Below, piece after piece: positions 2,888 through 51,300 of a stretch of 64,000 nt of DNA. This stretch comes from Solirubrobacterales bacterium (GTDB lineage: Bacteria > Actinomycetota > Thermoleophilia > Solirubrobacterales > Solirubrobacteraceae). The DNA is taken from NCBI GenBank assembly GCA_038238015.1, contig JBBRYA010000003.1, positions 14,462 to 78,461 on the forward strand, given 5' to 3'. The notes beneath the pieces were generated by a model. The model was not told where the DNA came from. It ran no database searches and saw only the letters and a list, made by a program, of their open reading frames with translations. Each line of letters opens with the position of its first letter. Position 1 is the stretch's first letter. Made by a program: the position numbers and the translations under genes.

Positions 2888-5296
2888 ATGCCCACCTCAT
2901 TGGTAACGGGTGGAGCGGGATTCCTCGGGTCGCATCTCTGCGACGAGTTGCTGCGGCGCGGCCACCGCGTCGTCTGCGTCGACAACTTCGAGACCGGCTC
3001 CCTCGCCAACATCGAGCACATCCGCGCGCCGGAGTTCGTCCACCTCCACAAGGACATCATCCACCCGTTCTTCGTCGATGAGCCGGTGAACTTCGTCTAC
3101 CACTTCGCCTCTCCCGCGTCGCCGATCGACTACCTGCGTCTGCCGCTGCACACGCTCAAGGTCGGCTCCTACGGCACCCACAACGCGCTCGGGCTGGCAA
3201 AGCAGCACCGCGCCCGCTTCCTCACCGCCTCGACCTCGGAGGTCTACGGCGACCCGCAGGTGCACCCGCAGCCCGAGTCCTACTGGGGCCACGTGAACCC
3301 GATCGGCCCGCGCGGCGTCTACGACGAGGCCAAGCGCTACGCCGAGGCCCTGGTCATGGCGTATCACCGCCAGCAGGGGCTGGACACGGGGATCGTGCGG
3401 ATCTTCAACTCGATCCTCGCCGACGAGCAGGTGCTCTACGACGACGGTCGCGAGCTGCGTCGCGAGAAGGTCTCAGAGCTTGCCGGGCGCCTGGCCGCCC
3501 GGGCAGTGGCCGCCAGCTACGTGCCCAGCAACGCTGCAGGGACACAGTTGATGGACGCGGCTGTCGAAGCGTCCGAATATCCGCTCGAGGGGGTCACCGT
3601 TCCCGCCTTCGGCGAGGGCGGTCACATGGTGGCGGCGCCCGCCTCAGCGCTGATCGCGCACCCCACCGAGGAGCGCTGCTTCGAGGTGAGCACGCGCTAC
3701 GGCCGGTCGATCCGCGTGACCGGTCACCACTCGATCTTCGTCGAGGGCGCCGACGGCGAGCCGGTCGCCAAGCCGGTTGAGGACCTCGAGGTCGGCGATC
3801 ACGTCGCGATCCCGCGGCGGATCGAGGTCCCTGAGCGCGACCGCACGGTAGTGAGCATGATCGAGGTCTGGCGCTGGGCGGAGGAGGACCCGTGGGACCT
3901 CTGCGCCGAAGCCCCGGGACTGGGGGAGCTGGCGTGGCAGCGGCGCTACGACCTGTTCGGGCTGCTGGCCTCGCAGCGCCGCAACAACGGTCCGAACTGG
4001 CGCAACGGGGCGTGGACGAAGATCATCCGCATGCGTCAGACCGGGCGCGTGCCCCTGCCGGCGCTCTGGCGCATCGGCGAACCGCTCCCCGACGACGCCT
4101 GGGTGCGCAGGCGCGGCACCGGACGCAGCGTGCCGATGCCGGCGCGCATCCACCTGAGCGACAAGCTGCTCTGGCTGCTCGGCCTCTGGGTCGCCGAGGG
4201 CTCGTGGCACGAGAGCTCGCACGATTCGTACATCACGCTGAGCGCCGAGGAGCCGCTGCTGTGGCGCGCGGCCGACGTCATTCGCGAGGAACTGGGCCTC
4301 CACTGCGTGTTCGCTCCGGCGAGCGGGGCACGCTCGGCGTCGCTCTTCGTGCACTCGAAGCTGCTGCTGAAGCTGATGGCCTTCCTCGGCTTCGAAGAGG
4401 GCGGCAAGCGGATTCCCGGCTGGATCCTCGGGCTGCCGCTCAGCCGCCTGAAGTGGTTCATCGAGGGCTACCGCGAGGGCGACGGCGTGCATTCCGGCGC
4501 GTGGTTCAGGGAGGGCAAGAAGCACCACTTCGCGACGGTCCACGAGGAGCTCAAAGACGACCTCGTCGTCGCGCTGGCCCGCTTCGGGCTCGTGGCCTCC
4601 ATAGGCCGCTACAGCTCCAAGATCCGCCGCAAGACCGGGGATCGGGGCTATCCCTTCTGGAGGGTGTCGGTCTCGAGCCTCTCCCCGTGGAGCCCGCTGG
4701 AGTGGGACGCGGGCGTCGAGCAGCGGCTCAATGCGCGAACGACCGGCGATCTCGCCTGGGCAATGATCACCGGCATCCAGGAGATTCCCGCAACGAACCT
4801 CGTCTACGACTTCTCCGTCCCAGGGTACGAGAACTTTGTGGCGGGAGCTTGTGTCAATTGTCATAATACCTACGGCCCGAGGATGCGCCCGCATGACGGC
4901 CGCGCGATCCCGACCTTCATGCGCCAGGCGCTCCAGGACCGGCCGATCACGATCTTCGGCGACGGCTCCCAGACGCGCTCCTTCTGCTTCGTCAGCGATC
5001 TGATCGACGGGATCATCGGGCTCGCCGAGTCCGGCCACCATCATCCGGTGAACATCGGCAACCCCAACGAGTTCACGCTGCTCGAACTGGCCGACGCCGT
5101 CATAGAGGTCACCGGCTCGCGCTCGGAGGTCGTGCACGAGGCGCTGCCGACCGATGATCCCCAGGTACGCCAGCCCGACATCTCGCTCGCCCGCGAGATC
5201 CTGGGCTGGGAGCCGAAGGTCGAGCTTCGCGAAGGCCTGCAGACGACGCTCGAGCTCTCCGGAGTCGAGGCGCTCACTGGTGCCGGCCTGCGCTGA
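2888..5296 (+). CDS. UDP-glucuronate decarboxylase (UDP-xylose synthase-type extended SDR) interrupted by an intein
   Basis: Host motifs are [10 protein letters not shown] (Rossmann), STSEVYG and YDEAKR (catalytic YxxxK). The conserved ...VRIFN / TYGPRM... motif is split by a 486-aa insert. The joined exteins total 316 aa, the normal size for this family. Confidence 0.9.
3410..4867 (+). mobile_element. intein (486 aa) with LAGLIDADG homing-endonuclease domain, inside the UXS gene
   Basis: It starts Ser-Ile-Leu-Ala-Asp directly after extein ...IFN. Block B is [11 protein letters not shown]. The two LAGLIDADG motifs are [10 protein letters not shown] and [10 protein letters not shown]. The C-terminal [15 protein letters not shown]...VNCHN is followed by +1 Thr of TYGPRM. 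Confidence 0.85.
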
Positions 5297-5309
5297 GGGC
5301 AGGAAACCC

Positions 5310-5331
5310 CGCGACCATTGAGAAGGTCGCG
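5310..5331 (+). terminator. weak stem-loop downstream of the UXS gene
   Basis: CGCGACC-attgagaa-GGTCGCG forms a 7-bp stem. There is no T-tract, so function is uncertain. Confidence 0.25.
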
Positions 5332-5343: not shown

Positions 5344-6903
5344 GTGAGAGCAACTGTGGCCAAAACGCCGATCCAGACCGAACATCCCACACCGCCGGCC
5401 CGGCCCCCTCTCGGGCAGGTTCCCCTGCCCACGCCGCTGCTGGGCACCAACGGGGCGGTCGACGTCCGGCGCAAGCGCCCGCCCGGCCTGTCGTTCCTCC
5501 TGCGCGCCGAGACGCTGCGCCAGGTGCTGCGGGTGCTCAGCCTGCTGGCGCTGGACTTCGCGGGCCTATTCGCCGCACTCTGGACCGCGCTCATGCTCAA
5601 GGCGGTCCTGCTCGCCGACACCTGGGCGTGGAGCACGTCCTTCCAGGAGGCCAAGAACACCGTGGCCTTCGCCTACCTGGTGACCGCGCTGCTGTTCGCC
5701 CGCTCGAGCCTCTACGCCGAGCGCGCCCAGCGGCCCGGCCTGCCGAAGATCGTCAGCTCGCTCTTCCAGGTCACGGTCGTCGCGCTGATCTTCGCCGTGG
5801 TCAACGGCGAGCACTACTCCAGCTACTACATCTTCTACGGGACGCTGGTGTTCGCGGTCGTCTACGTCGGCTCGATCCGCTGGGCCTACGAGAAGATCAC
5901 CGGAATGCTGCTGCGCGCCGCCGGCTACCAGCGCCGCGCGGTGCTGGTCGGCTCCGGCCGGCACATCGAGGACGTCGCGCACGCGCTCACCGACGAGGTG
6001 CACGCGCCGGTTGAGATGGTCGGCTTCATCTCGCTGACCCCGCGCCCGGACAACGGCCTGCGCTCGCTCGGGCTGATCGGCGACCTCCCGCAGGTGCTCG
6101 ATCGCCACCGCGTGCAGGAGGTCATCATCGCCGACCCGGACTTCCCGCAGGAGCAGGCGGTCGAGCTCGTGGACCAGTGCCATCAGCGCGGCGTATCGGT
6201 GCGCATCGCGCCCTCGACGATGGAGATCCTCGTGCACCGCGCGGAGTTCGTGCCCGGCACCTCGGTCCCGCTCTTCGAGCTTCGCCCGCCGGTCTTCGAC
6301 GGCTTCGACTACGTGATCAAGCGCTCGTTCGACTTCGTCGGGTCGGTGCTGCTGATCCTGCTGCTGAGCCCCCTGCTGCTCGTCATCGCGGCCTCGGTCT
6401 TCCTCTCCTCCCGCGGGCCGGTGCTCTACCGGTCGATGCGCCCCGGCGTCGGCGGCGAGCTTTTCGCCTGCTTCAAGTTCCGCACGATGCGCTCTGACGC
6501 CGACCAGCTGCAGGCCGACATCGAGTCGCTCAACGAGGCCTCGGGGCCGCTGTTCAAGATCCGCCACGACCCGCGCATGACCCCCGTCGGGCGCTTCCTG
6601 CGGCGCTACTCGCTCGACGAGCTGCCCCAGCTGCTCAACGTCGTCTTCGGCCAGATGTCGCTGGTCGGCCCGCGGCCGCTGCCCCAGCGCGACTATGACC
6701 AGCTCGAGGACTGGCACAAGAAGCGCTATCTCGTGCTGCCGGGGATCACCGGCCTGTGGCAGGTCTCGGGGCGCTCGGAGCTTGACTTCGACGACCTCGT
6801 GCGCCTGGACTTCCTCTACCTCGAGCGCTGGTCGGTCAGCCTCGACCTGACCATCCTGGTCAAGACCGTTCCGGCCGTGCTGTCGCGGCGCGGCGCGTTC
6901 TAG
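5344..6903 (+). CDS. large (WbaP/EpsB-type) polyprenyl-phosphate sugar phosphotransferase, priming enzyme
   Basis: N-terminal TM helices and a central Rossmann-like region are followed by the C-terminal bacterial sugar transferase signature FKFRTM...PLFKIRHDPRMTPVGRFLRRYSLDELPQLLNV...SLVGPRP...PGITGLWQVSGR. The start codon is uncertain. Confidence 0.9.
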   Translation: MRATVAKTPIQTEHPTPPARPPLGQVPLPTPLLGTNGAVDVRRKRPPGLSFLLRAETLRQVLRVLSLLALDFAGLFAALWTALMLKAVLLADTWAWSTSFQEAKNTVAFAYLVTALLFARSSLYAERAQRPGLPKIVSSLFQVTVVALIFAVVNGEHYSSYYIFYGTLVFAVVYVGSIRWAYEKITGMLLRAAGYQRRAVLVGSGRHIEDVAHALTDEVHAPVEMVGFISLTPRPDNGLRSLGLIGDLPQVLDRHRVQEVIIADPDFPQEQAVELVDQCHQRGVSVRIAPSTMEILVHRAEFVPGTSVPLFELRPPVFDGFDYVIKRSFDFVGSVLLILLLSPLLLVIAASVFLSSRGPVLYRSMRPGVGGELFACFKFRTMRSDADQLQADIESLNEASGPLFKIRHDPRMTPVGRFLRRYSLDELPQLLNVVFGQMSLVGPRPLPQRDYDQLEDWHKKRYLVLPGITGLWQVSGRSELDFDDLVRLDFLYLERWSVSLDLTILVKTVPAVLSRRGAF

Positions 6904-6927
6904 CCCTGAGGCGTTAGCCTTCGGCGC

Positions 6928-7098
6928 ATGCTCATCCTCGCGCTCAGCGACGCGGCGAAGACCACGATCTCCGCGGTGATCATCTGGTTCGTCGCCTTCC
7001 CGGCCCTGATCGGGATCCTGATCGCCGTCTCGGCGTTCCGCGCCCACGGCGAGAAGATGGAGGACGAGGAGTACTTCCGGCAGCACCGCCGCCGCTAG
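6928..7098 (+). CDS. possible 56-aa small membrane protein
   Basis: ATG...TAG ORF read directly from the DNA (MLILALSDAAKTTISAVIIWFVAFPALIGILIAVSAF...). It has one hydrophobic helix, is below the ORF-track size cutoff, and has no homology evidence. Confidence 0.3.
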   Translation: MLILALSDAAKTTISAVIIWFVAFPALIGILIAVSAFRAHGEKMEDEEYFRQHRRR

Positions 7099-7105
7099 GC
7101 CTGAG

Positions 7106-8065
7106 TCACCGGGCCTGCAGCGCGCGCTCGTAGACCGCCCACGTGGCGGTCGCGGCCTCGCCCCACGTCCACGGCGGGGGGTCGGGCGCGGGCCGCGTAG
7201 CCCGCGCGGCCGCGTGCACGAGCGCGGCCATGTCACCCGACGCCACGTAGGTCGCGCGGTCGCCGACCACCTCGCGAAGGGCCGGAAGGTCACAGGCGAC
7301 CACCGGAGTCCCGCACGCGAGCGCCTCGACGGCCGGCAGGCCGAAGCCCTCGTCGGCGGACGGGACGACCAGCGCGCGAGCGCCGCTGTAGATGGCGGCG
7401 AGGTCGTCGTCGCCGACCATCCCGGTGAGCGTCACGTCGTGCAGCTCGCGCGCCCACTGCCCCGCGTCCCCGACCAGGACGAGCGGCAGCTCGCGCGGCA
7501 CCTCGGCCAGCGGGGCGACCCGCTTGGTCGGCTCGGGATGGCGCAGCGCGCCGACCCACAGGAGGTAGTCCTCGGGCAGCCCGTAGCGCTTGCGGACCGC
7601 GGCGGTCTCCGTCTCCGGGCGCGGCGTGAAGGCGGGAGCGGGCGCCTCGGCGATGACGTGCACGTGCTCGGGGTCGCAGCCGAGCAGCTCGATCGCGTCG
7701 GCCCCCACCACGTCGGTCGGCACGATCAGCTCCGCTGCGCGCTCGACCGCCAGCCAGCGCATCCGCGCCCGCAGGCCCGCGCGCAGGACCTGGCCGGGGC
7801 GCTTGAGCGCCACGAGGTCGTGGAGCGTGATGACCATCGGCAGGCGCGGGCGCAGCAGCGCGCCGTTGAGCCACGGCGAGTGAAACAGGCTGTCGCCGCG
7901 CTGGGGCTCGCGGCCCTCGAGCACTTCGGCGCCCCGGCGCGCGGCCTCCTCGCGCAGGGCGTCGAGCAGGCAGCGCGCGTAGCGGCCGATCCCGTCGGGC
8001 TCGGCCGCCGGGCGAGAGTCGTAGCGCACGCGCAGCCCCCCGTCGCCTGGCCCGCGGTTCGGCAC
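7106..8065 (-). CDS. glycosyltransferase family 4 (GT-B)
   Basis: N-terminal GIGRY motif and C-terminal VPSADEGFGLPAVEALACGTPVV (the E-x7-E region of GT4). Confidence 0.85.
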   Translation of the reverse strand: MPNRGPGDGGLRVRYDSRPAAEPDGIGRYARCLLDALREEAARRGAEVLEGREPQRGDSLFHSPWLNGALLRPRLPMVITLHDLVALKRPGQVLRAGLRARMRWLAVERAAELIVPTDVVGADAIELLGCDPEHVHVIAEAPAPAFTPRPETETAAVRKRYGLPEDYLLWVGALRHPEPTKRVAPLAEVPRELPLVLVGDAGQWARELHDVTLTGMVGDDDLAAIYSGARALVVPSADEGFGLPAVEALACGTPVVACDLPALREVVGDRATYVASGDMAALVHAAARATRPAPDPPPWTWGEAATATWAVYERALQAR

Positions 8066-8109
8066 CGACGGACCATACCCCTCGCCCGGCGCGCACTAGC
8101 CTCGCGCGT

Positions 8110-8727
8110 GTGAAGGACTACTACGAGGACGTCTGGGCGCAGCTCCCCGAGGATCCCGAGCCGTGGGCGTTCGCGCGCCGCCGCGCGCTCCTGCTCGGCG
8201 AGGCGCGGCCGGGCGAGCGGGTGCTCGACCTCGGCTGCGGGGCCGGGCGCTTCCTCGCAGCACTGCGCGACGCCGGCGCGGACCCGGTGGGCGTCGAGCT
8301 CGCCGAGGGTGCGCTCGAGCGGGCCCGGCGCAACGTCCCGGGCGCCGACCTGCGCCCGCTCGGCCCGGGCGGCGAGCTGCCGCTCGAGGACGCCTCCGTC
8401 GATCTCGTGTGGTCCTCGGAGGTGCTCGAGCACGTGCCCGACACCGCGCGCACGCTGTCTGAGGCCCGCCGCGTGCTGCGCACCGGAGGGCGCCTGCTGG
8501 TGACCACGCCGGCGCACGGGCCGCTGCGGCGGACGCTGATCGCGCTCGCGCGCTTCGACTCCCACTTCGACCCGCTCGGCCAGCACGTCCGCTTCTACTC
8601 GCGCGCCTCGCTGGAGCGTGTGCTGGGTGCGTTCGCCTTCGAGCCGGTGCAGGTCAGCGCCGAGGGCGGGCCGCCGGGCCTGCGGGCGATGCTGGTGGCG
8701 CGAGCGGTGAAGGCGAAGCTGGTCTAG
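8110..8727 (+). CDS. class I SAM-dependent methyltransferase
   Basis: Motif I VLDLGCGAGRF and post-I/II motifs DLVWSSEVLEHVPD and LRTGGRLLVT. GTG start. Confidence 0.85.
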   Translation: MKDYYEDVWAQLPEDPEPWAFARRRALLLGEARPGERVLDLGCGAGRFLAALRDAGADPVGVELAEGALERARRNVPGADLRPLGPGGELPLEDASVDLVWSSEVLEHVPDTARTLSEARRVLRTGGRLLVTTPAHGPLRRTLIALARFDSHFDPLGQHVRFYSRASLERVLGAFAFEPVQVSAEGGPPGLRAMLVARAVKAKLV

Positions 8728-10820
8728 CGCTGTTGCAGTGCCCGCGAGGCCTCGAGGAAGTCAGAGCTCGACTGCGCCGGCTGCGGGTCCAGGAAGTAGG
8801 TCGCGCGGAACGCCGCGACCGCGCCCTCGGGATTGTTGAGCGAGCTGAGCCGGTAGCGCCCGAGCCGTCGCCACGCCTCGGCGTTGGCGGGCTGGAGCTT
8901 GACGGCCTGCTCGAGCGCGTGCAGCGCGCCCTGCTTGTCGCCCTTCGCGTCATCGATGAAAGCCAGCTGCCACAGCGGGTCGACCGACAGCGGGTTGCGC
9001 TTCGCGGCCGTTCGCGAGATCGAGGCGGCCGCGTCGTAGGCGCCGATCTGCGCGCGGTCGATCGCCGCGTCCTCGGCGTGGGCCGAGCGCACGGGTTGCA
9101 GGGCCATCCACGAGCCGACGAGCGCGACGGCGAGGACGGCCAGCGCGCCCGCGGCTCCGGTACGCGGCGGGCGCCACGCGCGCAGGCGCTCGCGCCAGGG
9201 ACCGCGCGCAGGCGGCGCCACGACGACCGCGGCCTCGGTCCGCGCGCGCAGCGGCCCGCGGCCGGCGACCCAGGCCGCGCACAGCAGCGCGACCGCGGCG
9301 TTGCCCGGCACGAACCAGGTCCAGTCGATCAGCGAGTGGACCGTGAACACGAGCACGACCGTGGCCATCGTGAGCATGCCGACCCGCTCGGCGTCGAAGG
9401 CCAGCCCGCGGTCGCGGCGGCGCAGCCCGAGCGTGCGGGCGGCCGCGACCAGCCACGCCAGCGCCGCCAGCAGCGACAGGCCGAGGCCCACGAGCCCGAG
9501 GTCCGACAGCGTCTGCACGACGTACCCGTGGGCGTGGCGCACCGACTGGGTGCTGTAGCGGTAGCGCGTCCGCGCGGTGCCGAACGCGCCCGCCCCGGCG
9601 CCGATCCACTTCGAGTGGCGATAGACGGCGAGCGCCTCGCGCCAGTAGGCGGCGCGGACCGAGGAGGTGGCCGTGAGGCGGTCGGGCGTGTTGGTCGGCG
9701 TCGCCGCCTTGGGATCGGTGAGCCGGTGCCAGCTCGTTGAGACCTGGCCGCTCAGCCCGCCCGGAGCAGTCGCTATCGCCACTACGACGACCACGGGGAT
9801 GATCGCGAGTGCGCCGAGGATGCCGCGCCCGGCGAGGCGCCGCAGGCGCGCGCTCGGCGCACGCCTCGCGGCGAGGAAGTTGACCGCCAGCCCGGCCGTG
9901 ACCAGCAGCGCGGCCATCAGCAGCAACAGCGCTCCCAGCTCGTGACCGGCGTCGCCGCGCGCGCTCAGCGGCACACGGTCCAGGGTCAGCGCGTCGCGCC
10001 GGAACGCCCATGCGACCACGGGCGCCGCGCCCACCAGCGAGCCGACCAGCGCCGTTGCCCCGCGTAGCCGCAGCGGCACGACCGCGAACCAGAAGGCGAG
10101 GCCCACCAGCAGCGCCAGCAGCGCGCCGCGCGAGTAGGAGAGCATCATGCAGACCGCCAGCAGCCCGAGGCCCGGCCAGGCGAGCGCGTTGACCGCCGCG
10201 TCGCCGGAGCGGCGGGCGGCGAGCCACAGCAGTGGCGGCACCCCGAGCGCCGCCATCAGGCCGACGGCGTTCCAGTAGCCGAAGGGCTCGCGCAGGCGCG
10301 CGTAGGTCTCGCCGGGGGCGAGCGCGGCGGGGAAGACCTTGGTCGCCAGCGCCCAGGCACAGACCAGCAAGCAGGCGAGGCCCACGCCGTGCAGCACCGC
10401 CGCCCAGCGCTCGGGAGCCAGGCGGACGAGCGCGAGCGCCCCCGCGAACGCGGCGAGGTAGGCGAGCGTCCGGTTGGCCTCCAGCCACGAGTCCGACGGG
10501 GCGAGCGACCAGACGATCGAGAGCGCGGTGAACACCGCGAGCCCCGCGAGCGCCAGCAGCGTCATCGCGCCGGGGATCTCGCCCCGCACGCGGTCGGTGA
10601 GCAGTACCGCCGCGGTCAGGCCCGCGCCGAGCAGCAGCAGGCCGATCTCCGTCCAGGTCGTGCGCTCGAGCCGCAGCCCGCCGTCGGCCACGAAGGCCAC
10701 CGCCGCGAGCGTGAGCCCGACGGCAATCGTCAGGCCCGCGTCAGCGCGCACCCGGTCGAAGGGCAGCGGGCGCGCCTGGGCGCGCCGGGCGGCGCTAAGC
10801 GGCGCGGCGAGCGAGGACAC
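8724..10820 (-). CDS. O-antigen ligase/polymerase-like (Wzy_C) polytopic membrane protein with C-terminal TPR region (copy 1)
   Basis: At least 10 predicted TM helices with a large loop, then a C-terminal soluble part with TPR-like repeats (...GDKQGALHALEQAVKLQPANAEAWRRLGRYRL...). Confidence 0.8.
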   Translation of the reverse strand: MSSLAAPLSAARRAQARPLPFDRVRADAGLTIAVGLTLAAVAFVADGGLRLERTTWTEIGLLLLGAGLTAAVLLTDRVRGEIPGAMTLLALAGLAVFTALSIVWSLAPSDSWLEANRTLAYLAAFAGALALVRLAPERWAAVLHGVGLACLLVCAWALATKVFPAALAPGETYARLREPFGYWNAVGLMAALGVPPLLWLAARRSGDAAVNALAWPGLGLLAVCMMLSYSRGALLALLVGLAFWFAVVPLRLRGATALVGSLVGAAPVVAWAFRRDALTLDRVPLSARGDAGHELGALLLLMAALLVTAGLAVNFLAARRAPSARLRRLAGRGILGALAIIPVVVVVAIATAPGGLSGQVSTSWHRLTDPKAATPTNTPDRLTATSSVRAAYWREALAVYRHSKWIGAGAGAFGTARTRYRYSTQSVRHAHGYVVQTLSDLGLVGLGLSLLAALAWLVAAARTLGLRRRDRGLAFDAERVGMLTMATVVLVFTVHSLIDWTWFVPGNAAVALLCAAWVAGRGPLRARTEAAVVVAPPARGPWRERLRAWRPPRTGAAGALAVLAVALVGSWMALQPVRSAHAEDAAIDRAQIGAYDAAASISRTAAKRNPLSVDPLWQLAFIDDAKGDKQGALHALEQAVKLQPANAEAWRRLGRYRLSSLNNPEGAVAAFRATYFLDPQPAQSSSDFLEASRALQQR

Positions 10821-11382
10821 GTCGGCGCACCATCGGGGCTCCGGCCGCCGCGGCGCACAGGGCGACCAGCACGAGCACGATCAGCACGGTGGTCGGCAGC
10901 CCGTTGCGCGCGGCGCTCGCCGCGAAGCCCGACGCGCCGGGCACGATGCGCTCGTTGCCGAGGGAGATCGCGCCCCCACCCTTGCGCGCCTTGGCGAGCG
11001 CCTTCTCCTCGGCCTTGCCGGCCGGGTAGAGCACCGGGCCGCTGCCGGTGGAGACGCCGCCGGGCGCGTTCGCCGCGCCACCACCACCACCACCGCCGCC
11101 GCTCACGCCGCCACCGCCTGCGAGCCCGCCGCCGCCAGATCCGCCGGAGCGGCCGGAGAGAGACGCGCGTGCGAGCACGTCGCGGCAGTCGGAGTACTCG
11201 TCGACGTCGGTCGGGATGTTCTTTCGCGCGTCTTGCAGCTGGCCGGGCGTGTAGCGCCCGGTGATCGCGCCCGACTGGCACTCGCGCAGGATGTTCTCGC
11301 GCGTCCCGGCGCTGGCCGTCGGCGCGGCCAGCAGCAGGATCAGCGCGCTGAGGCTCAGCAGCCGAACCATGTGCGCGTTCAC
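10795..11382 (-). CDS. secreted Gly-rich protein with C-terminal membrane anchor (copy 1)
   Basis: Signal peptide LLSLSALILLLAAPTASA, then a poly-Gly/Ser tract, then NERIVPGASG, a TM helix (TTVLIVLVLVALCAAAAGA) and a basic tail. GTGA overlap with the upstream GT4 gene and a 26-nt overlap with the downstream Wzy-like gene. Confidence 0.6.
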   Translation of the reverse strand: MNAHMVRLLSLSALILLLAAPTASAGTRENILRECQSGAITGRYTPGQLQDARKNIPTDVDEYSDCRDVLARASLSGRSGGSGGGGLAGGGGVSGGGGGGGGAANAPGGVSTGSGPVLYPAGKAEEKALAKARKGGGAISLGNERIVPGASGFAASAARNGLPTTVLIVLVLVALCAAAAGAPMVRRRVLARRAA

Positions 11383-13636: not shown

Positions 13637-13643
13637 CAGCCGG

Positions 13644-13970
13644 TCACGAGAGCGACAGCGTGTAGCGGAGGGCGCTGTTCACCTCGACCAGCCGCTGTGG
13701 CGGGATCGTCCCCAGGTGCTGCACGAGCGCGCTGCGGTCAGGGAGCGTGAAGAGGTCGTGGCAGATCACCCAGGAGGAATGCGGCAACTCTTCGAGATCT
13801 CCTGGCCGTAGGGCGACCGCGGTCGGTATCGATCGCTCTCGGTCGACGCTCGTGATCCGAGCGACGACCGGTCGCAGACTCAGCGTCACAACCCGCCGGG
13901 AGACAACGAGAGCGGGCTTCAGACCGACTCCGGGCAGGCGAGCCAGCCACGCATCCCCGCGCTCATACAT
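13644..13970 (-). CDS. mazF: PemK/MazF-family type II toxin
   Basis: 108 aa. The RGD.W...LP.....KPALVVS...........V..ITS pattern is typical of MazF/PemK. It lies 8 nt downstream of a small upstream partner ORF. Confidence 0.75.
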   Translation of the reverse strand: MYERGDAWLARLPGVGLKPALVVSRRVVTLSLRPVVARITSVDRERSIPTAVALRPGDLEELPHSSWVICHDLFTLPDRSALVQHLGTIPPQRLVEVNSALRYTLSLS

Positions 13971-43718: not shown

Positions 43719-43950
43719 GCCGGCCTGTCAAGGGCACCCACCCTCGACACCGGCTGCGAAGCGACCCAGCGAGCTCGCCGACCACCTCAGGGTCGTCAAG
43801 CGGCGGCCGCGGGCACAGGTGGCCGAGCAGGAGATCGCCGAGGCAGGCCGAGTCGTCGGCTCCACGCCCGGCGCCTTCCCGTCGTGGGGATGGATCTGCT
43901 CGAGAAGTACTGGCTGAGCCCGACCAACGGGGTGGATGAGAACGGGAACT

Positions 43951-44670
43951 TCAGCCGCGCGGCGAAGCCCGTTTTGCCGAAGCCTGGCGCGCTGGAGCCC
44001 GCGACGGCGGCGGAGATGCCGCGGATGCGCCGGCTTCTGCCGGCTTCGTCTTGCTCAGCGACGAGAGCTCCCATAGCCCGAGGCTCTTGTCGGAGTGGGG
44101 CTGCGCGGGGTCATAGACCCGCTCGGGGAGCAACATGAGCGGTGGCGGAAAGTCGAACGGCGGCCGCTGCAGGTTGATCGGCCGCCACCCCCCGGTTGAG
44201 CCGGGGCTGTTCTTCTCCTGGGCGTAAAACGTAGTCGCCAGAAGGTAGGCGATGCCGGCCTCGCGGAAGTGCTCGATCGCCTGCATGGCGTCGTCTTCGA
44301 CGAGATGGACCAAGCAGTCCCGGCACAGTGCGAGATCAGCCTGCGGCAACTGGTCGCGCGTGATATCCCCGACCTGAAAGGACACTCGATCGGAGGCGTA
44401 CCGCTGATTCGCGTCGATCAGCGCTGGCACGATGTCAACGCCGATGTAGCGATCGAGAGCTCCGAGCTGGTCCTGAAACCAGTTGAAGTCACCGCACGGA
44501 GCGTCGAGGAGCACGTGCGCGTCCACGGCGCGGAGCACGAACGGGAGCGCGCGCCGGAGGAAGGCGGTCGCGGGAAGCGAAGCCCCGGGTCCAGAGGGAG
44601 TGCCTCCCTTCCACTTGTTCGTCTCGTAGATCGCGGTGAACTGCGCTGCGAGGCCCTCTGGACGACTCAT
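43951..44670 (-). CDS. class I SAM-dependent methyltransferase
   Basis: LLDAPCGDFNW..., DLALCRDCLVHL and ...INLQRPPFDFPPP...DKSLGLW. ATG 44670 overlaps the upstream GT4 stop (ATGA). The low-complexity C-terminal tail may be read-through. Confidence 0.8.
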   Translation of the reverse strand: MSRPEGLAAQFTAIYETNKWKGGTPSGPGASLPATAFLRRALPFVLRAVDAHVLLDAPCGDFNWFQDQLGALDRYIGVDIVPALIDANQRYASDRVSFQVGDITRDQLPQADLALCRDCLVHLVEDDAMQAIEHFREAGIAYLLATTFYAQEKNSPGSTGGWRPINLQRPPFDFPPPLMLLPERVYDPAQPHSDKSLGLWELSSLSKTKPAEAGASAASPPPSRAPARQASAKRASPRG

Positions 44671-45779
44671 GGCGGCGTCGGGCTGCAAGCGGCTTCGCAT
44701 GCGCGCGACACGCCCTCTGCCGCGGTCCGCCAGTTGAAACGCTCGAGGATCACCTCCCTGCCCTTCGCGCCCTTCTCGACAGCTTCCGACTGGTTCGCGT
44801 ATGCGCTCCGCATTGCTGCTCTTGCGGCCGCGGCGTCGGGCTCGTGGTACGTGATGCCGGGCTCGCCGTAGGCGTTTCGGAAGCCCGCAGCGAACGGGTC
44901 GTCGTCGCCAAGCGCCAGCACCTCGAGCTCACGCGTCGGCAGGAGGTAGCCCAGCTCGTCGTTGAGGTACTCGGCCATGCCGGTCGAGTTAGGGGCGACC
45001 ACGGGCTTGCCACAGAGGAGCGCCTCCGTGAGCGGCATGCACCAGCCTTCCCCGCGGCTCATTGTTACGATGCAGTCGACGCGGTTGTAGGTTCGGCACA
45101 TCCACGGGGGCGACTGCGGACGCGTGAGCATCCGGACATGAGCGAGTGGCCGGTGCGCCTGGATGTCACGAAGCAAGTAGTTGAACTCGTCGCCCATGCC
45201 CGTACAAAGGAGCCAAAGCTCTACGGGCTCGCGCTCGCTGAACTCGTCTAGGTACGCCGCAAGGAGTAGATCGACGCCCTTGCGGTAGCTGAAGCTGCCG
45301 ACGAACAGGAACGTGAAGCGGTCCGATCCCTCCGGCCGCCATTCCGGGACCGGTCGGAAGACGGCCGGGTTGGAGCCCTGCGGCGCGACGTGCACGTTCG
45401 GCAGCTCTCGGGCGAATACTTCCAGGTCATACTGACCGGGGACGATGCACCCATCTGCGCGGTGGAGGGCCTCCACCCACTCGCGTCTGAGCCCTCCGAG
45501 CGCGTTCTGCGTGTAGATCAGGCTGGGCGAGCGGAACTGGCGGCTGGCCGCCGGGCTGCCGATCTGGAGCACCAGGTCGGCGTCGGGCGGAGCTGCCGCG
45601 GCGGGGAGCCCTTGGAGGCGCTCCGCATTGCCGGGTTCGATCTGATCCCACGCGCGGTCGCCGTCTTGACGGATCACCTCATGCCCCAGCTCGTGAAGGC
45701 CAAGCGTCAGGTGACGGGCGAGCGCGCCGTACCCCGTCAGTGATCGGTGCCGGAGGCCGTCATGCACGTAGATGCGCAC
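44667..45779 (-). CDS. glycosyltransferase family 4
   Basis: GT-B layout with C-terminal ...MSRGEGWCMPLTEALLCGKPVVAPN. GTG start. Confidence 0.85.
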   Translation of the reverse strand: MRIYVHDGLRHRSLTGYGALARHLTLGLHELGHEVIRQDGDRAWDQIEPGNAERLQGLPAAAAPPDADLVLQIGSPAASRQFRSPSLIYTQNALGGLRREWVEALHRADGCIVPGQYDLEVFARELPNVHVAPQGSNPAVFRPVPEWRPEGSDRFTFLFVGSFSYRKGVDLLLAAYLDEFSEREPVELWLLCTGMGDEFNYLLRDIQAHRPLAHVRMLTRPQSPPWMCRTYNRVDCIVTMSRGEGWCMPLTEALLCGKPVVAPNSTGMAEYLNDELGYLLPTRELEVLALGDDDPFAAGFRNAYGEPGITYHEPDAAAARAAMRSAYANQSEAVEKGAKGREVILERFNWRTAAEGVSRACEAACSPTPP

Positions 45780-45882
45780 GCGCGCACCCTAGCTGTGCGT
45801 GGAGGGAAGGGCGGCCATGAGCCGAGCGAGCTTCGACCCAAGCGCACTGGCACGACCCGCTCCAGACGCCGGGGCCTGTTCC

Positions 45883-46782
45883 TCAGCGGGCATGAGCTGC
45901 TGACGCCAGCTCCTGCTCCGGCAGGTACGACAGAGAGAAGGACGATGCCTGGAGCCGCGCCGGCGGGGACGTGGTGCGCGCTCGCAGGCAGACGTTGATG
46001 ACTTCCGCCCATGTCGCGTCGCCGACGCTGCCGAGCATCTCCGACTCGCGCGAGACGGTCACTGAGACGGTCCGGGCGGGCAGCAACTGAGTCCAGAAGA
46101 AGCTCCGGTGATCCTTAGTGCGAAACAGCAGTTGCGCCTGTAGGTCGGCGCTTTTCGTTTTGACCGCAAGGTCGAAGTGGAAGTGATGCGGGAGCGCGAC
46201 GTTCGCGACCAACGTCAGTTCGTGCCAGCGCTCCGTCTCGGTGAGAGTCAGCCTCGCGGGCTTCGGAAGCAGCTTGCGACTCACGTGGTGCTGTCGCAGT
46301 GACGGCAGGTCGAACGGGATGGGCTGCCGGTCGCTGACGACCGTGGTCCGCGGCCTCGCGTTGGCGTCATCCAGGCGGTAACGGAAGTCTGAGAGCAGCG
46401 GCTCGAAACCGTAGTGCGCGGCGTGCTCAGTGTCGTGGACCACGATGAACTGCGCGTTGCTTCGGAGACGCAAGATCGCCGGGACACGATCATGGCCCGG
46501 GGCCTGGTCGACGAACGCGACGTCCCAGGGCTCGTCGAGCAGCTCGAACCGTCGCCAGTCTTCCACAAGCAGGAGCTCATGGTTCGGCGACTCGAGGTAA
46601 CGGAACCGATCCATCCAGACGCCGCTGTTGTCCGCGGTGACCAGGCGTCGGCCGGCGCACGCGGTGTGGAGGATCGGAGTGCTGCCGTAGCCGCTGCCGA
46701 GCTCGAGCACGGGGCCGCCCGTATGGGCGACGGAGCCGAGCAGGACTGGCAGGTGCGTACCAAATGCTGTCGCTGGGTCCAC
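45883..46782 (-). CDS. hypothetical protein; N-terminal half resembles a class I methyltransferase fold
   Basis: VLELGSGYGST (motif I-like) and ...DVAFVDQAPGH...FIVVHDTEH. The C-terminal ~140 aa has no recognised motif. Confidence 0.6.
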   Translation of the reverse strand: MDPATAFGTHLPVLLGSVAHTGGPVLELGSGYGSTPILHTACAGRRLVTADNSGVWMDRFRYLESPNHELLLVEDWRRFELLDEPWDVAFVDQAPGHDRVPAILRLRSNAQFIVVHDTEHAAHYGFEPLLSDFRYRLDDANARPRTTVVSDRQPIPFDLPSLRQHHVSRKLLPKPARLTLTETERWHELTLVANVALPHHFHFDLAVKTKSADLQAQLLFRTKDHRSFFWTQLLPARTVSVTVSRESEMLGSVGDATWAEVINVCLRARTTSPPARLQASSFSLSYLPEQELASAAHAR

Positions 46783-47183
46783 GAGCGCGGGCGCAGACTA
46801 CTCGAGTTAGCAGCAGCGCGGCGCGATCGGGAAGCACACGTAGTCGGGCCTACGGTGGGGTAGCGCACGACCGTCGCCAATGCGTGAAAGGAGCGGCCGG
46901 CTGGAGCCCAGCGATCCTCGGCCCGACGACCCCCGCGATCCCGATCATGGCGCCCCGCCAGATTCTCGACAACTTCAGCCGTGCCACCCAGACTCACACC
47001 GGGTCGGCGGTCGACTGGCTCGCCCAGTTCCCCGATGCAATTCCAGCCTTCCGCGCTCACCGAGGCCGAGAAGCGTCGTATCGCGGCCAGTCCACCCGGT
47101 CTGGGTCCGTGTATACGCGTCCCAGGCTGCTGTCGCGCGAGGGACCAATTCGTTTGGAAGACCTGGGCTCGTGCAGGCGTGAC

Positions 47184-47873
47184 ATGGTACGCAGGGCCTA
47201 TGCTGGAGCGGCTTTGGAGGAGCCCGGCCGCCCCGACGAGAGCTCGCCCGCATCCCAAGACAACCGCTGGTGTTGCATCTGTAACGCAAGCCAGCGGCGT
47301 GACCATGCGGGCCGGCGACTTGCGCATTGCCCGGTGTGTGATGCGCTCGAGCGCCACCGGGCGCTTGCGCTCGCATTCATACCGGAACTGGACCACGGAG
47401 GCGACCGGCGCTGTTTGGAGATCGCCCCGGTGAGCCCGACCTGCTTCAAGCAGTATCTCCGCGCTCGCGGTTGGCAGCATGTAAGCGTCGACAAGTGGCG
47501 GACCGGGAACCCGCACGACCACCGGGACGTCGGGTTCGTCGACATCGAGGTGGACATTGCCGACATGCGCCTTTTCGCTGCTGGCGCATTTGATCTCGTC
47601 ATCGCACAACACGTCATCGAGGAGGTTCCCGACGCCTATCGGGCGCTCGACGAGGTGCGGCGTGTACTCAGCGCCGGCGGCCTCGCTCTGCTTGAGATCC
47701 CGCACGACAAGGGTCTTGAGAGGTCGGCGTCCCAGACACCGAATCACTTTGGCAACCTGTGGTCCTTCGGCCGCGATCTTCTCGACGAACTCGGCAAGCG
47801 ATTTAACGCGGTTGAGTCTCGCGCCCTACGGGAGGGGGACTACCGAGGCGAGATCTTCGCCTGTCACGTCTGA
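47184..47873 (+). CDS. class I SAM-dependent methyltransferase with N-terminal CxxC...CxxC zinc-ribbon
   Basis: WCCICN...HCPVCD, then LEIAP...FDLVIAQHVIEEVPD...LSAGGLALLEIP. Codon usage is visibly more A/T-ending than in neighbours. An alternative in-frame ATG lies at 46947. Confidence 0.7.
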   Translation: MVRRAYAGAALEEPGRPDESSPASQDNRWCCICNASQRRDHAGRRLAHCPVCDALERHRALALAFIPELDHGGDRRCLEIAPVSPTCFKQYLRARGWQHVSVDKWRTGNPHDHRDVGFVDIEVDIADMRLFAAGAFDLVIAQHVIEEVPDAYRALDEVRRVLSAGGLALLEIPHDKGLERSASQTPNHFGNLWSFGRDLLDELGKRFNAVESRALREGDYRGEIFACHV

Positions 47874-47886
47874 GACGGCTTCTCCA

Positions 47887-48893
47887 ATGCTCCGCCGCTT
47901 CCTCGCCGCCCTTGCCGCCACGCTTCTCCTGGCCGCCCCAGTCGGCGCCCTCTCCTCCCCCAAGAAGGGCATCTGGGGTCCCGCGCGCGTTGGCGGCGTC
48001 TCGCAGTTCCCGATCTACAAGGAGCTCGGGGCCCGAGTCTACAACTCGAGCCTGAACTGGAGCGCGATTGCGCCGAAGCAGCCGGCCGATGCGGCGGCCG
48101 AGGCGCAGAAGTCGGCGATCAAGGTCGCGCTGCTGGTCACGCAGTCGCCGCCGTGGGCGAACGGGGGCAAGCTGAGCCAGTGGGTTCCGCGGGCGGCTGA
48201 CTGGGCGGACTTTCTGGTCGCGGCGGCTCGGCGCTACCCGACGGTGCACGACTGGATCATGTGGGGGGAGCCGACGCGGGCGGCGAACTTCCAGCCGATC
48301 CCGGCGACGCATCCTTCGCGGCCGCTTCCGGCCAAGGGGAAGCGCACGGTCCAGCTCTACGCGGGGCTGCTCGACGCGGGCTACGGCGCGCGCAAGGGCG
48401 TCAGCTCGCGCAACGTCGTGATCGGCGGCAACAGCTTCACCGGCGGGGACATCTCGCCCTTCAACTGGATTCGCTACATGCGGCTGCCCAACGGCAAGCG
48501 CCCGCGGATGGACCTCTACGGCCACAACCCGTTCACGCTGCGCCGCCCGCGGCTGTCGGACCCGAGCGTCAGCGCGGCTACCGGACTTCTCCGACCTCGA
48601 TGCGCTGGCGGGCTGGCTGGATCGCTACTTCGGCAAGGACCCGCGCGGGAAGCCGATGCGGATCTGGCTTGGGGAGTTCGTGCTGCCGACCGACCATCGC
48701 AAACTTCGAGTTCAACTTCTACGTCAGCCGCAGGGCCCAGGCCTCGTGGCTGACCGACGCGCTGAAGATCACGCGGCGCTGGTCGCGGATCGCCGCACTG
48801 AACTGGCTTGGGCTCTACGACGACGCGCGGGGCCCCCGGGGGGCGACGAGGTCACCGCGGGCTGATCGACGCCCAGGGCCGGCGCAAGCCGTC
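47887..48893 (+). pseudogene. frameshifted, 3'-truncated paralog of the secreted GH-A-like hydrolase at 19871..20938
   Basis: An intact signal peptide and IMWGEPT lie in one frame. DFSDLDALAGWLDRYFGKDPRGKPMRIWLGEFVLPTDH lies in a second frame. ANFEFNFYVSRRAQASWLTDAL...[10 protein letters not shown] lies in a third, and [12 protein letters not shown] in yet another. The last ~10 codons are missing. Confidence 0.75.
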
Positions 48894-48896
48894 CTT

Positions 48897-48974
48897 AAGG
48901 CGGCTCATCAGCGATCCGCCTCCGATCCCGGTGAGGCCGACGAAGCTGCCGACGCCGAGGCCGAACATGATCAC
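48897..48974 (-). pseudogene. about 26-codon N-terminal remnant of a TauE/SafE-like permease gene
   Basis: [23 protein letters not shown] is the typical first helix plus GxGGG motif of this family. It then loses similarity at the junction with the hydrolase pseudogene. This is a very short fragment. Confidence 0.3.
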
Positions 48975-48993
48975 GAGCGGGTCCAGCGGGTGG

Positions 48994-49242
48994 ATGCTCG
49001 CCGCCGACGAACTAAGATCGCCCCCCAGCGCGGACGTCGCCCTCACCAGCGAGCCTGCGGCGCTGCCGCACGAGCTGTCGCACCTGCGGACGCTCGAGGC
49101 CGAGGCAATCCACAGCATCCGCGAGGTCGCCGCCGAGCTCGAGCGCCCGCTGTTCTCCGGCGGCAAGGACTCGATCGTTCTCCTGCACCTGCGCGCAAGG
49201 CCTTCCGGCCCGGAGGGCTTCCGTTCCCGCTGATGCACGTCT
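48994..49242 (+). pseudogene. cysD: N-terminal remnant of sulfate adenylyltransferase subunit 2 (cysD), frameshifted and truncated
   Basis: [41 protein letters not shown], then after a frameshift [17 protein letters not shown] (PAPS-reductase-like SGGKDS motif). Similarity ends at about 49242. Confidence 0.6.
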
Positions 49243-49377
49243 CTTGGCGGGTGCCGAACCCTCACAGCACCACCGGACCATCAAACCCACCGCGCATTTG
49301 GTCTAGAGCGTTTGACGATGCTCCGTAACCGCGCGCGCGACTCCTGACCAGCCGTCAGACCCCGCGCGTGACGGGAC

Positions 49378-51300
49378 CTATGTGGCCAGCAGCTTCTGGT
49401 CCGCATCCACCATCAGCCGGATCAGCTCCTCGAAGGAAACCCTCGGCGTCCACCCCAGCTCCCGCTCAGCCTTCGCCGCATCCCCCACCAGCAGGTCAAC
49501 CTCCGCCGGCCGCTTGAACGCGTCGTCGATCCGCACGTACGGCTCCCACTCGAGCCCCACATGGTCGAACGCCACTTCCACGCACCGCCGGACCGTGTTG
49601 GTCTCGCCAGTCGCGATCACGTAATCCTGCGGCGTGTCCTGCTGGAGCATCATCCACATCGCCTCGACGTAGTCGAGCGCGTAGCCCCAGTCGCGCTTGG
49701 CATCGAGATTGCCTAGAGCAAGCGAGTCGCGCAGCCCCAGCTTGATGGCCGCCGCATGCCAGGAGATCTTGCGGGTCACGAACTCCAGCCCGCGGCGGGG
49801 AGAGTTGTGAACGACGAGCCGGCCGATGCCGGCGCAGAAGAGGCCGCTCTCAGTCTCGACGTCAAAGACCCATTCGGAGCGTTCAGGGGCCACCTCGACA
49901 ACGCGCCGCACCTCGGCCGGGTCGCGGCGCAGATGCTGGCCCTTGGCACCGACACGGACAGCGCTTGGGAGATTGAGCAGGTAGTAGCAGCGGTCTCCAC
50001 GGTGCTCCGCATAGACCGACGGCGTCCGATCGCGCAGTCCATATAGCCAGCACAGGCCTTGAGCGAGCACGGGCGAGTTGGTCTTCACGGCTTCGCCGTT
50101 GCCGCGCTTGAGCCCGTCGCCCGCGTAGTAGCCCTTGAGGAAGGCATCCTGCGCCTCTGCGGAGGCGTTGAGCACGAGTGGCGGCACCTGCTTGAGGCCA
50201 GTGCGGGTGTACAGCTGCTGCCTCAACCAGCTGTGCAGGGGCCCGGCGCCGCCCATGAAGGTCTTCGACCAGAGGTTGGCCACGAGCATCTGCAGGCCTG
50301 GGTCGTTGTTGGTGAACTGGATGGCGTGGTCGCCGATGTAGCCGTCTGCGGCCAACAGACCGAGCAGCTCGCCGAGCTCAGGAGTAACCGCGGTCCACTC
50401 GCCGGTGCCCGGCCAGTCGAGTGACATGCCGAGCTTGTCGCCGTCTGTGACCTCGTCGGCTCGCAGGGGGTCGTGTTCCTCGTCGATCATCGTGTGGTGA
50501 GCGGTGGTCTGAACGATGCCGCCGCGGGCTTCGATGGAGAGCAGCCGGTGGTCGGGGTCGGTCACTCGCCGACGGGTCGCCGTGATCGCCTTCAGCTCGG
50601 TCCAGTTTGCGCCGTCCCAGATCTCCAGAAGGAGGTCAGCGGGTAGGGCATGGCTCTGAACGCTTCTTCCCTTGCGAAGGAGCGGTATCAGGTCAGCCGG
50701 TGTGACGACCTGCACCAAGCCCTTGCGGCGCACCATCAACGGGGTCGCCTCCGCCACGCACTCGTGGTTGAAGAGGATCCCGGAGCACAGCGCCATGTCG
50801 TAGGACTCGCGGTAGTTGACCGTGATGTGGTGGCCGTAGACCTTCGCGACGCCATAGGGCGAGCGCGGGTAGAAGGGCGTGTCCTCGTTCTGGGGCGTCT
50901 GGCGGACCTTGCCGAACATCTCGCTCGATGACGCCTGGTAGAAGCGCGCCTCCGGGGCGGCTTCGCGCACCGCCTCGAGCAGCCGCGTCACGCCGACCCC
51001 GGTGAACTCGGCGGTCAGCGTGGGCTGCACCCACGAGGCGGCGACGAAGGACATCGCGGCGAGGTTGTAGATCTCGTCGGGCTTGGCGGCGCGCAGCGTG
51101 TCGACGAGCGAGCGCTGGTCGAGCAGGTCGCCCTGGTGCAGGGTCACGCGCTCGCGGATCTGCTCGATGCGCTCGAACTTCTCCGTCGAGGAGCGGCGGA
51201 CCATGCCGTGGACCTCGTAGCCCTTCTCGAGCAGGAGCTCGGCCAGGTAGGAGCCGTCCTGGCCGGTGATCCCGGTGATCAGTGCGTGTTTGGGCGACAT
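49378..51300 (-). CDS. gmd: GDP-mannose 4,6-dehydratase interrupted by an intein
   Basis: Host motifs are ALITGITGQDGSYLAELLL, QASSSEMFG and SPYGVAKVY. GILFNHE / SPRRG...FVTRKI is split by a 319-aa insert. The exteins total 321 aa. Confidence 0.9.
   Translation of the reverse strand: MSPKHALITGITGQDGSYLAELLLEKGYEVHGMVRRSSTEKFERIEQIRERVTLHQGDLLDQRSLVDTLRAAKPDEIYNLAAMSFVAASWVQPTLTAEFTGVGVTRLLEAVREAAPEARFYQASSSEMFGKVRQTPQNEDTPFYPRSPYGVAKVYGHHITVNYRESYDMALCSGILFNHECVAEATPLMVRRKGLVQVVTPADLIPLLRKGRSVQSHALPADLLLEIWDGANWTELKAITATRRRVTDPDHRLLSIEARGGIVQTTAHHTMIDEEHDPLRADEVTDGDKLGMSLDWPGTGEWTAVTPELGELLGLLAADGYIGDHAIQFTNNDPGLQMLVANLWSKTFMGGAGPLHSWLRQQLYTRTGLKQVPPLVLNASAEAQDAFLKGYYAGDGLKRGNGEAVKTNSPVLAQGLCWLYGLRDRTPSVYAEHRGDRCYYLLNLPSAVRVGAKGQHLRRDPAEVRRVVEVAPERSEWVFDVETESGLFCAGIGRLVVHNSPRRGLEFVTRKISWHAAAIKLGLRDSLALGNLDAKRDWGYALDYVEAMWMMLQQDTPQDYVIATGETNTVRRCVEVAFDHVGLEWEPYVRIDDAFKRPAEVDLLVGDAAKAERELGWTPRVSFEELIRLMVDADQKLLAT
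49804..50760 (-). mobile_element. intein (319 aa) with LAGLIDADG homing-endonuclease motifs, inside gmd
   Basis: It starts with Cys (CVAEATPLMV) right after ...FNHE. Block B is VQTTAHHTMI. The LAGLIDADG motifs are LLGLLAADGYIG and FLKGYYAGDGL. It ends VFDVETESGLFCAGIGRLVVHN followed by +1 Ser. Confidence 0.85.

Follow-up and report, generated by a model that had tools for sequence, protein, structure and literature searches.

Two apparently separate intein lineages in one conserved loop of paralogous extended-SDR sugar-nucleotide enzymes of a Solirubrobacterales bacterium

How do two different inteins come to sit side by side, so to speak, in the same loop of two paralogous sugar-nucleotide enzymes of one genome? 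The question is raised by a 64,000-nt stretch of DNA from a Solirubrobacterales bacterium (assembly GCA_038238015.1, contig JBBRYA010000003.1, positions 14,462-78,461 of the forward strand; hereafter the window, whose own coordinates are used throughout), which holds intein-interrupted genes for a UDP-glucuronate decarboxylase (UXS) and a GDP-mannose 4,6-dehydratase (GMD), both of them extended short-chain dehydrogenases/reductases (SDRs). An earlier note on this DNA had left two origins open, ectopic transfer between the paralogous sites or independent capture of the same conserved loop. Our results speak for the second and against a transfer between UXS and GMD, for which the cross scores are too low and the alleles too widespread at their own sites. 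Most probably, two independent mobile class-1 inteins of the LAGLIDADG type each colonized the strand-to-helix F-N-x-x-x-P-R loop of an extended SDR.

In the UXS precursor, the Pfam profiles Epimerase and GDP_Man_Dehyd, which represent extended-SDR families, are each split in two pieces, and there is a match to Pfam Intein_splicing at 63.1 bits (cut-off 35.8). The junctions read GIVRIFN/SILADEQV … ACVNCHN/TYGPRMRP (a slash marks the point of insertion here and below), and excision of the intein leaves a protein of 316 residues that aligns gap-free over the junction with human UXS1 (hUXS1; 4gll/2b69, E 8e-104). The insert has the features of a class-1 intein, namely Ser1, the TxxH motif of block B (T104 and H107, invariant in the family alignment), a terminal Asn, Thr at +1, a restored host protein and a match to the splicing-domain profile. 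None of the UXS-specific NCBIfam models reached its cut-off for the precursor. In spliced numbering, T116/S117/E118, Y145, K149 and R275 of the host correspond to T118/S119/E120, Y147, K151 and R277 of hUXS1, and T116, E118, Y145, K149 and R275 are invariant across the UXS host alignment; the host thus keeps the catalytic SDR Thr/Tyr/Lys triad as well as the counterparts of Glu120 and Arg277, which the hUXS1 structure paper describes as invariant in the UXS group (PMC3438964). A placement of hUXS1 Arg277 within the G-P-R of the interrupted loop was dropped, as the same paper (PMC3438964) puts this residue in a different loop (268-277).

Epimerase and GDP_Man_Dehyd are likewise each found in two separate pieces in the GMD precursor, which, with its intein still present, scores 426.4 bits with NCBIfam TIGR01472 (gmd) against a curated equivalog cut-off of 415. 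Here the junctions are GILFNHE/CVAEATPL … GRLVVHN/SPRRGLEF, and the intein-excised protein of 321 residues is gap-free over the junction when aligned with Pseudomonas aeruginosa GMD (1rpn, E 7.5e-126). Cys1, TxxH, a terminal His-Asn, Ser at +1 and the restored host protein again mark a class-1 intein; no Pfam Intein_splicing match was reported in this precursor at E ≤ 0.01, and the profile of the GMD intein family reaches 46 bits with V-ATPase inteins. Each insert carries a pair of LAGLIDADG motifs, and every motif includes an acidic residue. The particulars given in the earlier note (N/TYGP in UXS and NHE/SP in GMD, 486 and 319 residues, Ser and Cys as first residues, Thr and Ser at +1) all proved exact.

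Are these inteins still intact? The GMD intein of the window is without 24 residues of the endonuclease domain that are present in most members of its family; the deletion point lies between the LAGLIDADG motifs (KTFMG followed directly by GAGP, near nt 50250), and other members have lost LAGLIDADG motif 2 instead, which suggests a decaying endonuclease in the GMD intein. This internal deletion might be read, together with the variable penultimate residue of the UXS intein family (H, K, A, S, R or N, with Asn and Thr+1 kept), as a sign that both inteins are decayed and non-functional and that UXS and GMD are pseudogenes. We give that explanation virtually no credence: the reading frames are open over both whole precursors; both window copies keep the N-terminal nucleophile, TxxH, the terminal His-Asn and the +1 nucleophile; the GMD deletion spares the splicing domain; and the G+C content at third codon positions is coding-like, at 0.83-0.89 for the inteins against 0.92-0.93 for their hosts.

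The spliced UXS and GMD proteins are distant paralogs (24% identity, E 2e-11), and BLASTP aligns IFNTYGPR of the one with LFNHESPR of the other. On the Pfam Epimerase profile, UXS residue 176 (in precursor numbering, the second residue of the intein) and GMD residue 180 both fall at position 173, which puts N174 and N178 together at position 171. When the two host families are aligned profile to profile (probability 98.8%), F-N comes to lie on F-N and P-R on P-R. With the UXS intein directly after the conserved Asn174 and the GMD intein directly after Glu180, the three alignment methods agree in placing the insertion points exactly two residues apart in a homologous strand-to-helix loop. An AlphaFold2 model of the UXS precursor (mean predicted local distance difference test score, pLDDT, 76.8) has the intein directly after the strand 167-170 and the next host helix 12 residues past the intein; in the model of the GMD precursor, whose N-terminal host part is unreliable because the model's alignment was without N-termini, the helix begins 8 residues past the intein, in agreement with the alignment. 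The offset of two residues claimed in the earlier note is thus borne out by BLASTP, profile coordinates and profile-profile alignment alike.

Judged by their sequences, the UXS and GMD inteins are separate lineages, unrelated beyond generic intein and LAGLIDADG features. Direct comparison by BLASTP yields a single LAGLIDADG block with 15/50 identities (E 0.004). A profile of 118 UXS inteins scores at most 26 bits with GMD inteins, and a profile of 47 GMD inteins at most 31 bits with UXS inteins (best single domain ≤21.5). The UXS-intein profile reaches 86.6 bits (E 1.3e-23) with the DNA polymerase intein PI-PkoII (2cw7) and 53 bits with a TFIIB intein; the GMD-intein profile reaches 46 and 43 bits with V-ATPase inteins, 50 bits with a RadA intein and 83 bits with one intein of the multi-intein protein P0384. 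Each intein is therefore more like inteins of unrelated hosts than like the other, and UXS and GMD do not share one intein allele, their positions being two residues off and their cross scores at most 31 bits vs. 46-87 bits. When all excised inteins were compared by all-against-all BLAST, the GMD intein of the window scored 284-347 bits with other GMD inteins, 71 bits with the P0384 intein and at most 36 bits with any other SDR-hosted intein. GMD inteins also occupy a separate long branch in a neighbor-joining tree (Poisson distances, 200 bootstraps).

These scores bear on the alternative of descent of one intein from the other, in which a jump between the UXS and GMD genes would have come with a two-residue shift and been followed by divergence. 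Such a history has some precedent, as jumps between paralogs and a two-residue shift seem to occur within the UXS-type lineage (the RmlB proteins P0256 and P0341, described below); moreover, both inteins are of the LAGLIDADG type, and hhalign relates the two families at 86.6% probability, over the endonuclease and C-terminal blocks only. However, inteins of unrelated hosts score as high as, or higher than, members of the other family, the 71 bits to the P0384 intein exceed anything that the window GMD intein shares with inteins of other SDRs, the reconstituted UXS and GMD target-site DNAs are identical at 13/30 nt, and no cross-match occurs among 240 listed relatives. We regard descent of one from the other as extremely unlikely and retain independent capture.

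Both families are widespread, each at its own site. Database relatives of the UXS intein number >1000, and the best 120 of these are UXS proteins, mostly of ~800 residues and with intein identities of 63-82%, from metagenome-assembled genomes (MAGs) of Solirubrobacteraceae, Thermoleophilaceae and Gaiellaceae; the site reads IFN/S…N/T in 118/118 of those that could be parsed, all 118 with Ser1. GMD inteins occur in at least 178 species-level genomes, mostly of Solirubrobacterales. Among 71 loci parsed from GTDB genomes, the junction is FNHE/C in 46 and FNHE/S in 14 (60/71 at the same site), and the C-terminus is Ser-Asn rather than His-Asn in 22. Intein-free alleles are also abundant: none of the 120 proteins closest to the spliced UXS host (84-96% identity) contains an intein, their median length being 316 residues and their RIFN[TS][YF] loop contiguous, and among the 80 closest metagenomic GMD loci checked (64-84% identity), nearly all keep the FNHE-x-x-RR loop without interruption. 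Intein identity and host identity correlate moderately (Spearman 0.41-0.42). On this sequence evidence, both inteins are presence/absence polymorphisms in Solirubrobacterales, apparently mobile and cycling through gain and loss rather than fixed.

Several smaller observations concern the same families. Some intein-free GMD alleles (L092, L095 and L099) read FNHEGPRRG or FNHEGERRG and could not host a splicing intein because the +1 Ser is replaced by Gly. GMD inteins of 52-56% identity (L025, L028, L045 and L074) appear in MAGs labeled Chloroflexia, Myxococcales, Polyangiales and Armatimonas, which reflects either inter-phylum transfer or binning contamination. Three metagenomic GMD loci whose matches were over-long contain no mini-inteins. 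Within 6 kb of the GMD intein loci, no UXS intein is present. Many GMD-intein proteins in the database lack their N-terminus, but a second insertion in these truncated entries (P0121-P0240; L001 and L002) was rejected, as the gene and its neighbors are split into fragments there; the fragmentation on the L001 and L002 contigs probably stems from assembly frameshift errors, and the protein lengths recorded for such entries carry no biological meaning. On two related contigs, epimerase genes close to GMD were considered as intein-free UXS and rejected, since at 30% identity they are other paralogs.

Is the loop itself an intein site? A search of the UXS intein against 1.84 billion representative proteins returned 1078 matches at E ≤ 0.001, many of them proteins of 670-810 residues whose host parts match the UXS profile weakly. 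After in silico splicing, NCBIfam models assign these hosts to other extended SDRs: P0341 is a dTDP-glucose 4,6-dehydratase (RmlB) above the curated cut-off and P0256 a partial RmlB, P0255 is GalE/RmlB-like, P0261, P0274 and P0306 are LegB/RmlB-like, and P0247, P0313 and P0337 belong to divergent groups. The intein of the RmlB P0256 and those of P0247, P0255, P0261, P0274, P0306, P0313 and P0337 (25-43% identity) lie between the Asn of the loop and the +1 residue, with junctions such as RPFN/S…HN/T, RPFN/C…HN/C and GSN/S…HN/SIGPYQYPEK. Relatives of the UXS intein are thus found at the same N/+1 position in at least four other extended-SDR groups, including RmlB. The RmlB P0341 carries its intein at VTRC/C…HN/CNNYGP, two residues upstream of the usual Asn site; spliced P0341 and P0256 both align gap-free with the RmlB structure 6bi4, which fixes their sites at TRC/S and TRCSN/N, respectively.

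In total, inteins occupy three positions of the loop (-2, 0 and +2) in at least six SDR groups (UXS, GMD, RmlB and at least three others), and every SDR-hosted intein found in this analysis lies in this loop. The earlier note had reasoned that unrelated alleles, each widespread at its own site, would leave only coincidence. Its premise holds, the lineages being unrelated and each widespread at its own site, and in favor of chance, an extended SDR offers few strongly conserved motifs that bear a native Ser, Thr or Cys (sharing of one motif can be put at ~1 in 5, a rough, uncomputed estimate). Its conclusion says too little: two unrelated inteins meeting in the same loop by chance, with no site preference, is an unlikely account of a loop that is recurrently used across extended SDRs and that holds all SDR-hosted inteins found. 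The shared location of the UXS and GMD inteins is probably not pure coincidence. Further UXS-type intein relatives, in P0262, P0269, P0277, P0279, P0302, P0312 and P0324, are followed by a host C-part that starts [TS]-x-x-E-[IV] (HN/TNEEIDME and HN/TYEEVKPI, for example); in these proteins Pfam recognizes intein domains only.

Within the UXS-type lineage, the inteins and their hosts tell different stories. P0337 and the UXS protein P0292 share 43% identity in their inteins (360 bits) and 33% in their hosts, and P0247 and the window UXS share 38.5% and 31%; conversely, P0247 and P0337 share 26% in their inteins and 43% in their hosts, and P0292 and the window UXS 28% and 47%. The conflicting intein groupings have neighbor-joining bootstrap values of 92-100. 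The two RmlB inteins are joined at 83, and that of P0256 is closest to UXS-hosted inteins (294 bits). Each of two intein sub-lineages is found in UXS and also in another SDR group. Because intein and host similarities and trees disagree in this way, the data are best explained by movement of UXS-type inteins between SDR paralogs. We lean, with some reserve, toward a broader proposal in which the F-N-x-x-x-P loop would be a landing pad across the whole superfamily: one lineage would have jumped repeatedly between UXS, N-extended UXS-like, LegB/RmlB-like and RmlB hosts, with changes of nucleophile (Ser1/Thr+1 to Cys1/Cys+1) and one two-residue shift, while a second, unrelated lineage took GMD. 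Separately, the P0337 and P0292 inteins show that close relatives can differ in both nucleophiles, Cys1/Cys+1 in the former and Ser1/Thr+1 in the latter at 43% identity.

Based on these results, we propose the following scheme for the two window genes. The F-N-x-x-x-P-R loop joins the Rossmann domain of an extended SDR to its substrate-binding domain. The UXS intein, after Asn174, would splice with Ser1 and Thr+1 and the GMD intein, after Glu180, with Cys1 and Ser+1; as the intact splicing motifs suggest, each precursor would be inactive until its intein excises itself and the host halves are joined. Each intein would be kept as a presence/absence polymorphism, as expected of an element maintained by homing. 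The loop may be favored on two counts: its strong conservation would offer the endonuclease a stable target and make imprecise loss costly, and native Ser, Thr or Cys residues would be available as +1. An intein requires Cys, Ser or Thr at +1. The Thr after F-N in UXS is native in intein-free alleles, as is the Ser of His-Glu-Ser in GMD; in the RmlB hosts, the native Asn or Ser is replaced by Ser or Cys at +1. The first usable +1 residue is the Thr in UXS (FN/T) and, with His at the corresponding +1 position, the Ser in GMD (FNHE/S), so that the +2 offset may be simply what the local loop sequence allows. The UXS-type lineage, at the same N/+1 in other SDR paralogs, has apparently moved among them, and the GMD lineage appears to be separate, seen only in GMD.

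Several points weigh against this scheme. Splicing and the endonuclease mechanism are read from motifs. With its 24-residue endonuclease deletion, the GMD intein of the window may no longer be mobile. The GMD precursor model, as noted, is unreliable over the N-terminal host part. The case for a hot spot draws on the relatives of one intein lineage together with the GMD lineage, and other sites of the SDR fold may be used as often. The neighbor-joining tree applies simple distances to a divergent alignment, and its deep nodes do not resolve. All inteins have a common fold, and because of it a very ancient common ancestry of both lineages could still underlie them. Even so, we hold independent colonization of the loop to be the most probable account.

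Features of the two genes and of their surroundings are collected in Table 1.

Table 1. Coordinates of the intein-bearing genes, their parts and neighboring features in the window
Feature	Position	Strand	Details and basis
UXS precursor, intein-interrupted	2888..5296	+	UDP-glucuronate decarboxylase, 802 aa; open reading frame (ORF) + translation, Pfam
UXS N-terminal host part	2888..3409	+	aa 1-174, end GIVRIFN
UXS intein	3410..4867	+	aa 175-660, 486 aa, Ser1, block B VTGHHS, end CHN, Thr+1
UXS intein LAGLIDADG motif 1	4169..4201	+	columns invariant in UXS intein family alignment
UXS intein LAGLIDADG motif 2	4454..4486	+	invariant columns; Pfam LAGLIDADG_3 26.8 bits vs 22.5 cut-off
UXS C-terminal host part	4868..5296	+	start TYGPRMRP, stop codon included
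GMD precursor, intein-interrupted	49378..51300	-	GDP-mannose 4,6-dehydratase, 640 aa; ORF, NCBIfam
GMD N-terminal host part	50761..51300	-	aa 1-180, end GILFNHE
GMD intein	49804..50760	-	aa 181-499, 319 aa, Cys1, block B TTAHH, end VVHN, Ser+1
GMD intein LAGLIDADG motif 1	50338..50370	-	ELLGLLAADGY
GMD intein LAGLIDADG motif 2	50110..50145	-	AFLKGYYAGDGL; Pfam LAGLIDADG_3 21.5 bits, just under 22.5 cut-off
GMD C-terminal host part	49378..49803	-	start SPRRGLEF, stop codon included
Surrounding glycan-biosynthesis region	5344..64000	.	Pfam scans; context, outside inteins
SelB selenocysteine-specific elongation factor	1376..2875	+	directly upstream of UXS, left border of glycan region
PIN-domain gene	16004..16486	-	inside glycan region
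RTX calcium-binding repeat protein	17849..18556	-	among glycosyltransferases
Fused glycan enzyme, 844 aa	25442..27976	+	two GT4 modules
DMFA2_C protein	27958..29361	-	dimethylformamidase beta-subunit-like; among glycosyltransferases
Fused glycan enzyme, 1055 aa	31398..34565	-	GT2 + GT1-like modules
Fused glycan enzyme, 1398 aa	37642..41838	+	methyltransferase + GT2 + GT1
DUF6036 nucleotidyltransferase-like gene	51776..52297	+	inside glycan region
AbiEi/MTES_1575 gene	62006..62962	-	inside glycan region

The surroundings are dense in glycan genes. Pfam scans reveal ~14 glycosyltransferases (the three fused proteins included), two Bac_transf priming transferases, WecG, two Wzy_C-TPR proteins, two flippases, a DegT aminotransferase and many methyltransferases. 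Because core functions are duplicated (priming transferases, Wzy-like proteins and flippases), the region seems to be made up of several adjacent loci and not of a single one. The earlier note had both enzymes feeding a single glycan cluster of ~60 kb; the density of glycan genes stands, and the duplicated priming transferases (with WecG besides), Wzy-like proteins and flippases tell against the single cluster. No UDP-glucose dehydrogenase and no GDP-sugar reductase/epimerase was found among the window ORFs scanned, and the window contains no tRNA genes or Rfam matches. Its G+C content is high (67-76%), with 0.67-0.70 at ~28-52 kb and ~0.75 at both window ends; this dip and the interspersed PIN, DUF6036 and AbiEi genes hint at a mosaic, partly acquired region.

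The setting bears on a speculative regulatory alternative, the co-gating of precursor supply suggested in the earlier note: both inteins would be retained because the glycan machinery receives its UDP-xylose and GDP-4-keto-6-deoxymannose under joint control by conditional splicing. Some other inteins are known to splice conditionally, UXS and GMD both lie in the glycan-rich region, the insertions split both enzymes at the junction of cofactor and substrate domains (the unspliced precursors are predicted to be inactive), and conservation within the UXS intein family is strong (mean column identity 76-80%). On the other hand, intein-free alleles dominate the nearest relatives of both hosts, which makes the inteins dispensable; with different nucleophiles (Ser1/Thr+1 vs. 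Cys1/Ser+1), a shared redox trigger is improbable; and the genes lie 44 kb apart on opposite strands, apparently in different sub-loci. We consider joint control very unlikely.

What is new here is that inteins recur at the F-N loop of extended SDRs and that one lineage shows evidence of jumps between paralogs. Inteins are usually discussed for replication, repair and ATPase proteins; here they are abundant and polymorphic in sugar-nucleotide enzymes of the cell envelope, in an actinobacterial order common in soil. The UXS and GMD intein sequences are already public, some of them auto-annotated as "intein/homing endonuclease," and no paper describing inteins in UXS, GMD or RmlB was found in the searchable literature. 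The disagreement between inteins and hosts supplies concrete candidates for homing between paralogs, which is often assumed and rarely documented, and a genome that carries both lineages would be a natural test system for it, if the landing-pad proposal is true. Close relatives with Ser1/Thr+1 and Cys1/Cys+1 could serve protein engineering. For annotation, such genes are easily mis-called, many database entries being truncated or named dTDP-glucose dehydratase, and the products of intein-bearing genes are predicted to work only after splicing.

Among solved structures, PI-PkoII (2cw7/2cw8) matches the UXS intein family best. This DNA polymerase intein of Thermococcus kodakarensis is likewise a large LAGLIDADG intein, similar in size (537 aa); its host, however, is an archaeal DNA polymerase, and the best-matched stretch covers profile positions 61-177 only. 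The GMD intein family is matched best by the compact LAGLIDADG inteins of V-ATPase subunit A (7qsu and 7qss), which differ in their unrelated host and are weakly similar; no close relative of the GMD intein was identified in another host. A parallel for two unrelated inteins in homologous hosts is provided by the RecA inteins of Mycobacterium tuberculosis and Mycobacterium leprae, which lie at different positions and are read as independent acquisitions. Those hosts are orthologs in two species and the sites are far apart, whereas UXS and GMD are paralogs in one genome with sites two residues apart. That inteins cluster in conserved functional motifs, in non-orthologous as well as in paralogous proteins, is established (Novikova et al. 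2016, PMC4760082). The emphasis of that study's abstract is on replisome proteins, and no intein in an SDR, UXS, GMD or RmlB appears in its searchable text; the only sugar-nucleotide enzyme in its table passage is a UDP-glucose/GDP-mannose dehydrogenase (UDP-GlcDH) of Euryarchaeota, which is not an extended SDR. The likeness, as far as that text goes, lies in the principle: different inteins occupy the same conserved ligand-binding motif a few residues apart, and the conservation of the target explains it.

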